A DNA stretch of 64,000 bases from Escherichia phage ELT1, in sequence record MZ892903.1; one strand, 5' to 3'. The first letter of the stretch is position 1. The number at the start of each line of letters is the position of its first letter. A model generated the notes under the pieces. The model had not been told where the DNA came from and searched no databases. It was given only the letters and a program-made list of their open reading frames with translations. The position numbers and the translations under genes are program-made. Below are positions 55,203 to 55,957 of this stretch, piece by piece.

Positions 55203-55751
55203 ACCCAAGAAAACATCTACTGATCGTTGATACCACTGCAAATCCAAATATCCATTACGCACATTAAACTGATAAAACATATGACAAGGCGGTAATGACA
55301 TATATTTAAGTTCAGCTGGATTCCACGCAGAAACAATTTGACGCCTATCATTCGGCAGTTTTTTAATACGATCAACAACTTCTACAATTTGGTCTACACC
55401 GCCAAAATCACGCCATTGTTTTCCATAAATTGGACCAAGTTCACCGCTATGGTATCCTAAATCTTTTGCTTGATTTTCGTAATTTTCATCCCAGACTGTT
55501 TTGCCTTGAATTAATGAATCATGCTGAATTAATCGCAAATCATTGACATTTGTGCTTCCCGATAAAAACCATATTAGCTCAGCAATGCAAGCTTTCCAGG
55601 CGAGCTTCTTAGTCGTTACTGCAGGAAAACCTTTAGTTAAATCCCAGCGTAATTTAGTACCGAACAAAGCAATTGTTCCTGTGCCTGTTCGGTCATCGGT
55701 TTCATAACCGTTTTCCAGGATATCTTTAATTAAAAATTGGTATTGTTTCAT
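55203..55751 (-). CDS. td: thymidylate synthase, exon 1
   Basis: Start at ATG 55751 ([11 protein letters not shown]...; track start is upstream TTG); 183 codons; ends ...QRSVDVFLG at 5' splice site. Confidence 0.9.
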
Positions 55752-55957
55752 TAGTTCATCCAAGAATATGTAGAAGGATATTTGGCAAAGTTAGGCTTAT
55801 ATCCTAATTTAACCATTTGTTTTGCTTTGCGAGTAAATCCTAAAGAACGCTCACCTTTAAGATATTGTTTTGGTGTCATAGGCCCTTGATGCATCTGCCG
55901 ACAAATAAAAAGGGCCATAGCATTAGGAACATCCTTAACTTTTAATTTATTGCTCAT
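55751..55957 (-). CDS. small basic hypothetical protein between frd and td
   Basis: 68 aa; ATG overlaps frd stop (ATGA) and its TAA overlaps td ATG (TAATG). Confidence 0.55.

Follow-up and report, generated by a model that had tools for sequence, protein, structure and literature searches.

In bacteriophage T4 (NC_000866), the genes encoding dihydrofolate reductase (frd, 145109-145690) and thymidylate synthase (td, ending at 145112) overlap directly by 4 nt (ATGA), and the frd/td junction reads AAATGAAAC. These coordinates agree with the direct overlap that was stated for T4 in the original prediction on the DNA studied here. According to Arbiol et al. 2010, non-essential ORFs of T4-type genomes are shuffled modularly, as PeSL cassettes, in hyperplastic regions (PMC2839356).

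We analyzed the frd-td junction in a 64,000-nt stretch of Escherichia phage ELT1 (MZ892903.1), referred to below as the window. A 68-aa basic ORF had been proposed to lie between the two genes, and its coordinates and translation matched exactly. This ORF, named ORF68, is initiated at an ATG, comprises 68 codons and is read from 55957 to 55751 on the minus strand. The gene, its two partners and the overlaps that join them are as follows.

55751..55957, minus strand: ORF68, gene of a 68-aa basic protein (stop included), member of PHROG 9550; from the ORF list and the sequence
55954..56538, minus strand: frd (dihydrofolate reductase), upstream partner; from the ORF list, 88-90% nucleotide identity to T4 frd
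55203..55751, minus strand: td exon 1 (thymidylate synthase), downstream partner; from the ORF list, 94.5% nucleotide identity to T4 td exon 1
55954..55957, minus strand: ATGA overlap of the frd stop (TGA) and the ORF68 start (ATG); read from the sequence
55749..55753, minus strand: TAATG overlap of the ORF68 stop (TAA) and the td start (ATG); read from the sequence

The frd gene, named as such in identical public records, ends with ...GTG TAT AAA TGA, and the TG of its TGA is common to the ATG of ORF68, which lies within AAATGAGC. At the other end, ORF68 finishes with ...TGG ATG AAC TAA, the final A of the TAA being the first base of the td ATG (TAATGAAACAA). Both overlaps announced for this ORF, of its ATG with the frd stop and of its TAA with the td ATG, were therefore seen in the sequence. 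The predicted product has a mass of 7.9 kDa and a pI of 10.3, with 13 K+R versus 2 D+E.

Alignment of the window with T4 revealed exactly 204 additional bases between frd and td, so that a T-even junction alignment of the kind suggested beforehand confirms the insert relative to T4. Its junctions read ...TATAAATGA/GCAAT... and ...AACTAATGA/AACAATACC (the slash marks the joint), and AATGA bounds it on both sides. The 3' end of frd and the initiation context found at the ATGA of ORF68 are those serving td in T4, and the start context of ORF68 (…ACGGAATCAGTNTATAAATGA) is exactly that of td in T4. The possibility allowed for in the original prediction, namely that T4 itself carries the same ORF, was not borne out: ORF68 is absent from the T4 junction.

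ORF68 was compared with PHROG profiles by hmmscan. As a sensitive homology search had been called for, it is of note that PHROG 9550 was matched over its full length (E 1.3e-45, 154.5 bits, residues 1-68 on profile positions 1-68 of 68). This family is annotated as 'unknown function'. ORF68 is already public, as a 'hypothetical protein' in more than 100 T4-like phage genomes and with its own PHROG. The protein is 100% identical to annotated proteins of many phages (e.g. pSs-1, UGKSEcP1/2, ESh29 and LH2), and deposited phages including Shigella phage pSs-1, UGKSEcP1/2, ESh29, LH2 and ACG-C40 match the junction region at 98-100% identity. The insert is contained in 135 of 568 junction-matching records, and 134 copies of ORF68 were detected by tblastn at >90% identity. 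Other carriers of PHROG 9550 are Yersinia phages fPS-2 and PYPS2T, Marfa (gp177), CIP9 (gp059) and phAPEC8 (gp235). ORF68 is present in 16 of 24 Yersinia-phage records versus about 24% of all matching records, an enrichment that may reflect sampling (close isolates from few laboratories). The gene is unannotated in NC_012741 (JS10), NC_010105 (JS98) and KX828711 (SH7), and IME339 also includes a 42-aa version whose start was assigned to an internal Met. The label 'flagellar biosynthesis protein' attached to it in MH809535 (PYPS2T) and PV390659 (P8) found support in no profile library. Literature searches by gene names and PHROG returned no paper on the family.

The closest homologues from other genera are located directly upstream of td. 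This is the case in Klebsiella phage Marfa (Marfavirus, 81% identical), Enterobacter phage CIP9 (Kanagawavirus, 65-68%), Serratia phage 4S (60-62%) and the Dhakavirus JS10, and in all four the stop codon of the homologue overlaps (TAATG, ATGA or GTGA) or abuts the td start. More distant homologues (about 43% identical) are found in Phapecoctavirus (phAPEC8 gp235) and on metagenomic large-phage contigs. They lie in dense small-gene arrays, some beside PIF1-/DnaB-type helicase and RNA-ligase genes, with neither td nor frd within 3-6 kb. An exhaustive single-sequence scan of 1.84 billion representatives grouped the family into 6 clusters at 50% identity, and a profile search gave 43 clusters at 90% identity, all on phage-like contigs; members are 66-99 aa long, apart from obvious frameshift products. 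A scan of IMG/VR added 9 further loci, of the same kinds only. A pattern scan covering 185,579 bacterial and archaeal species, each represented by a single genome, detected no relative. No paralogue of ORF68 was found elsewhere in the window; a marginal tblastn match at 22041-22163 is antisense to a GIY-YIG gene and was attributed to chance. The window also contains a 205-aa GIY-YIG seg-like endonuclease ORF (21618..22235, plus strand) ending 3 nt before a UvsW-like helicase gene (22238..23746, plus strand).

A random 68-codon frame of the same composition would be open with p ~0.007, and 113 of 20000 shuffles of the insert remained open (~0.006). A chance open frame is excluded. Pairwise dN/dS values of ORF68 (Nei-Gojobori) were 0.155 with Marfa, 0.187 with CIP9, 0.081 with 4S and 0.056 with JS10, and synonymous differences reached 0.5-0.74 per site versus Marfa, CIP9 and 4S. 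Since dN/dS is low and synonymous change is high, the constraint acts on the protein and not on the DNA or RNA. Among 30 diverse members, invariant or at least 90% conserved residues include K4, K6, P11, L16, R20, Q24, K34, G35, G40, F41, M48, L51, G52, Y53, P55 and S62; within the T4-like subgroup, W66 and M67 also reach 90% conservation or more, and Phapecoctavirus members end in W-F-D. On this evolutionary evidence (dN/dS), ORF68 is most probably translated. Alternatively, the 204 bases could be untranslated, forming a spacer or an RNA element whose open frame is fortuitous, in keeping with the shortness of the ORF and with the deposition of JS98 and JS10 without its annotation. This is contradicted by dN/dS values of 0.06-0.19 at near-saturated synonymous change, by the low probability of an open frame (~0.006-0.007), by a full-length protein family that keeps invariant residues at 36-99% identity, and by the exact start/stop overlaps kept among homologues. 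Moreover, Rfam returned no credible family at the junctions, and RNA at either junction folded no better than shuffled controls, with no significant structure sequestering the Shine-Dalgarno (SD) sequence. A beta_tmRNA match across the frd/ORF68 junction (55887..56056, minus strand) scored 16.8 bits against a gathering threshold of 84 (E 0.021) and was considered as chance. The non-coding explanation retains next to no credibility and is effectively refuted.

Neither a sigma-70-like promoter nor an intrinsic-terminator-like site was found within ORF68. As no promoter, terminator or RNA element was found, frd, ORF68 and td are expected to share a transcript. The following motif precedes the td start.

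55757..55762, minus strand: TGGATG (codons W66-M67), with an SD-like GGA 7 nt 5' of the td ATG; kept upstream of the td start

All Straboviridae homologues examined have TGGATG ahead of td, and the GGA within this motif is a putative Shine-Dalgarno sequence for td. The locus displays a coupling architecture, with stop/start overlaps, a single strand and no intervening promoter or terminator. Judging from these features, termination-reinitiation along the frd, ORF68, td chain is likely: ribosomes finishing frd would re-initiate on ORF68, and those finishing ORF68 would re-initiate on td. This would yield the three proteins jointly, ahead of replication, and make td output dependent on translation of ORF68. 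An imperfect 9-bp helix was seen at 55712..55800 (minus strand), in which the 3' end of ORF68 (UUCUUGGAU, including the SD-like GGA) pairs with td codons 10-13 (AUCCUGGAA). It was rejected as an RNA element, being not above shuffled controls and absent in Marfa, CIP9 and 4S; it is specific to the Dhakavirus-type td 5' end that travels with ORF68.

The coupled chain would also extend upstream of frd, because a TAATG links a further ORF to the frd start.

56538..56783, minus strand: 81-aa ORF whose TAA overlaps the frd ATG (TAATG); from the ORF list and the sequence

This ORF sits between frd.1 (DUF5417, 56794..57036) and frd, has no Pfam match and is 96% identical to 'RB32ORF231c' of T2, while T4 has a 71-nt gap at the same place. 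It is thus a second gene of the frd-td operon that is missing from the T4 reference.

The frd-td junction is a slot with at least three states: occupied by ORF68 (about 135 phage records), occupied by an unrelated 115-aa ORF of the T2/RB32 type ('RB32ORF229c', 363 records at ≥90% identity), or empty as in T4. The 115-aa ORF, which fills the slot more often than any other gene, is carried by T2, RB32, ime09, Shfl2, RB68 and about 360 other records. The direct ATGA overlap was found in T4 and its laboratory variants, in Mosigvirus AV115 and in Dhakavirus MX01, and the empty slot was estimated at about a tenth of records by sampling evenly spaced rows of ranked lists. Most Tequatroviruses without ORF68 are also without the T4 arrangement. 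The qualification of ORF68 as an extra gene hence holds relative to T4 only; in most relatives the slot is occupied, and it is the empty junction of T4 that is in the minority.

The 115-aa ORF is separated from its neighbors by 20-nt and 45-nt spacers, with a separate SD for td, and a 9-nt direct repeat, TAAATGAAA, flanks the insert in T2. These arrangements suggest that td is initiated in three ways in near-identical phages: coupled to frd (T4), independently (T2) and coupled to ORF68 (window). Loci of the 115-aa ORF family are listed below.

L009 (phage T2), 1628-1975: 115-aa ORF family
L003, 1826-2504: 115-aa ORF family
L002, 2143-2496: 115-aa ORF family
L004, 2124-2504: 115-aa ORF family

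The 115-aa ORF is 45% identical to CIP9 gp061 and about 30% identical to CIP9 gp060, Marfa gp176 and 4S_00121, the last three being located between frd and the ORF68 homologue. CIP9, Marfa and 4S have both slot ORF families together. Members of the 115-aa family also occupy the slot in Jiaodavirus, Moonvirus, Gaprivervirus and Edwardsiella phage PEi20. The family has two tandem paralogues in CIP9 and a C-terminal motif, GRFxKxGxExYF. Its designation as a 'putative homing endonuclease' in one record was not supported by Pfam, NCBIfam or PADLOC models.

Comparison of the window with Dhakavirus JS10 delimited a block of unusually high similarity.

55710..55957, minus strand: introgressed block, ORF68 and td nt 1-42; 97.2% identical to Dhakavirus JS10

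The block differs from JS10 by 7 mismatches in 248 nt, versus 33 and 27 mismatches in the flanking 151-nt stretches (Fisher p 3e-11). In these flanks, the window (Tequatrovirus) is 78% identical to JS10 over the last 150 nt of frd and 82% identical over td nt 43-193. The left edge of the block lies at most 3 bases from the ATG, inside AAATGA, and the right edge near td nt 42-45. The td codons within the block (14 residues) are Dhakavirus-type, as in MX01, where T4 and T2 have MKQYQDLIKDIFEN instead; from nt 43 on, td of the window is Tequatrovirus-like. As the same 14-residue start is present in MX01, which is without ORF68, it is the native Dhakavirus N-terminus. Because td of the window begins in the Dhakavirus manner and the block is far more alike than its flanks, we conclude that the cassette moved between genera. 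ORF68 and the first 42 nt of td have thus been recently transferred between Dhakavirus and Tequatrovirus by recombination, with one joint at AAATGA. The simplest reading of the alignment is a Dhakavirus-like donor that would have passed ORF68 and the td start to a Tequatrovirus, later recombination having trimmed the imported flanks. The homology used in the exchange was provided by the conserved coding flanks and the stop/start motifs (AAATGA/TAATGA).

The presence of ORF68 varies inside both genera; within Dhakavirus, JS98, JS10, dhabil and CLB_P2 have the gene and MX01, WG01 and IME08 are without it. ORF68 had been described as inserted between frd and td. This stands for the Tequatrovirus lineage, in which the cassette comes with a Dhakavirus-type td 5' end, but not for other genera, where the pairing of the ORF with td is old.

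The td gene of the window is interrupted as in T4.

54187..55202, minus strand: td group I intron, 1016 nt, present as in T4 and carrying I-TevI
54334..55071, minus strand: I-TevI, within the td intron

An Rfam scan in E-value mode of positions 53800-57200 reported no group I intron family, which is likely explained by the endonuclease ORF splitting the intron. Intron homing co-converts flanking exon sequence (PMC2988022). ORF68, located about 550 nt from the I-TevI cleavage site, could accordingly be a selfish passenger of no benefit to the phage, co-converted with the mobile td intron in mixed infections. The presence of the intron with I-TevI in the window, the documented co-conversion of flanking exons (PMC2988022) and the evident lateral movement of the cassette are all compatible with this explanation. 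So is the intron distribution, about half of ORF68-positive records (69 records) being intron-positive versus about 35% of ORF68-negative ones, in a sampled comparison that ignores kinship. The association is nevertheless weak and uncorrected for phylogeny; about half of the ORF68-positive records are without the intron, and distant family members are near no intron. Moreover, purifying selection holds in Marfa, CIP9, 4S and JS10, where td (about 860 nt) has no intron. Because selection is seen in these intron-less genera, the passenger explanation is disfavored and we consider it very unlikely.

No recognisable family motif had been noticed in the protein. This was corroborated by the lack of any match in Pfam (E up to 10), in NCBIfam and in the anti-phage-defence-associated families of PADLOC-DB (E up to 1), yet ORF68 is a member of PHROG 9550. 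A sequence profile search of the PDB gave no match at E up to 10. AlphaFold2 produced a poor model from 13 close homologues (pLDDT 55) and a better one from 30 diverse members (pLDDT 81, pTM 0.57). In the latter, helices are predicted at residues 13-24, 29-39 and 43-50, and the C-terminal tail packs back on the N-terminal segment. Because the shallow-alignment model was poor, this predicted fold depends on a single 30-sequence alignment. Foldseek searches with the model found no match in the PDB and only the Klebsiella homologue in BFVD. Two candidate folds were tried by hhalign. A NUMOD1-type HTH or homing-endonuclease remnant was rejected (family profile versus I-TevI, probability 0.3%; Pfam empty), and so was, by a weak test, a ribbon-helix-helix of the Arc/CopG type, prompted by the alternating K-L-K-V-K N-terminus.

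ORF68 would be dispensable for dTMP synthesis, because T4 and T2 are without it. Tentatively, we propose that it encodes a small binding or modulator protein of the host-takeover or counter-defence kind, directed at nucleic acid or at an acidic partner from host or phage. Such a binding role, which is possible rather than probable, is favored because the protein is small, very basic, helical according to the model, rich in conserved Lys/Arg and restricted to phages, and because its gene has prereplicative neighbors, is dispensable, varies between strains and is laterally exchanged. A host-takeover or counter-defence function would fit the kind typical of strain-variable early phage genes. It is doubtful, though conceivable, that ORF68 founds a new-fold family of small basic phage proteins whose early targets in the infected cell would be nucleic acid of the host or one of its defence or housekeeping proteins. 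If this were true, the family would be exchanged among T4-like genera for a host-strain-specific advantage (counter-defence, host takeover), and its place in the frd-td coupling chain would ensure that it is expressed before replication.

That the gene is always next to td in five Straboviridae genera could instead point to a td-linked rather than a general host-directed role. ORF68 would then be an accessory specific to td or dNTP synthesis, for example a small subunit or adaptor of the nucleotide-synthesising complex, or a protein that regulates the amount or activity of Td, and coupling would serve to keep it in stoichiometric proportion to Frd and Td. Each Straboviridae genus examined has a homologue immediately 5' of td that overlaps the td start. 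The C-terminal codons of ORF68 provide the SD-like GGA for td, and the td 5' end is part of the cassette exchanged between genera. On the other hand, the ~43% identical homologues in Phapecoctavirus and on further large-phage contigs have unrelated small genes as neighbors, neither td nor frd being located within 3-6 kb; dTMP synthesis proceeds without ORF68 in T4, T2 and the majority of Tequatroviruses; and crossover position alone can explain the 42 co-transferred nt of td. These observations make a td-specific function unlikely. The binding, host-directed role hence ranks first, the td/dNTP-specific role second and the passenger explanation third.

We hold with high confidence that ORF68 is a genuine gene, that it has a coupling architecture, that it occupies a polymorphic slot and that it has been transferred between genera, these points being taken jointly. 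The complete explanation, in which an accessory gene of PHROG 9550 with a binding role was moved into a coupled position in this slot, is probable. The locus owes its residual interest to three features. The textbook ATGA overlap of T4 frd and td is one of three interchangeable slot states in a core nucleotide-metabolism operon. The ORF68 cassette provides a clean, sharp and datable inter-genus introgression of ~250 nt, with one joint in a stop/start motif. Finally, the family is widespread, selected and without recognisable fold or structural match, which makes it a reasonable candidate for phage accessory-gene screens.

The window shares the frd 3' end and the ATGA motif with the T4 frd-td overlap, and in both cases the architecture implies termination-reinitiation. 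Unlike in T4, where no ORF lies between the two genes, the ATGA of the window starts ORF68 and td follows one step later via TAATG. The 115-aa ORF of T2/RB32 resembles ORF68 in occupying the same slot, in being strain-variable and in having homologues in the slot of other genera; it differs by its unrelated sequence, by being uncoupled and by the flanking repeat TAAATGAAA instead of AATGA. As in the modular shuffling described for PeSL cassettes, a small gene is gained, lost and replaced among close relatives and exchanged across lineages (PMC2839356), but the exchange of ORF68 takes place inside a core-gene operon and not in a hyperplastic region as described there (PMC2839356). A consensus scan found neither an early promoter nor a stem-loop terminator flanking ORF68, and its assignment as a PeSL-type cassette was rejected. 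With respect to PHROG 9550 as found in pSs-1, ACG-C40 and others, ORF68 is a member that shows no difference, and in Straboviridae its position and its coupling to td are likewise shared. It belongs to an ordinary kind, that of the small accessory ORFs of T4-like phages.
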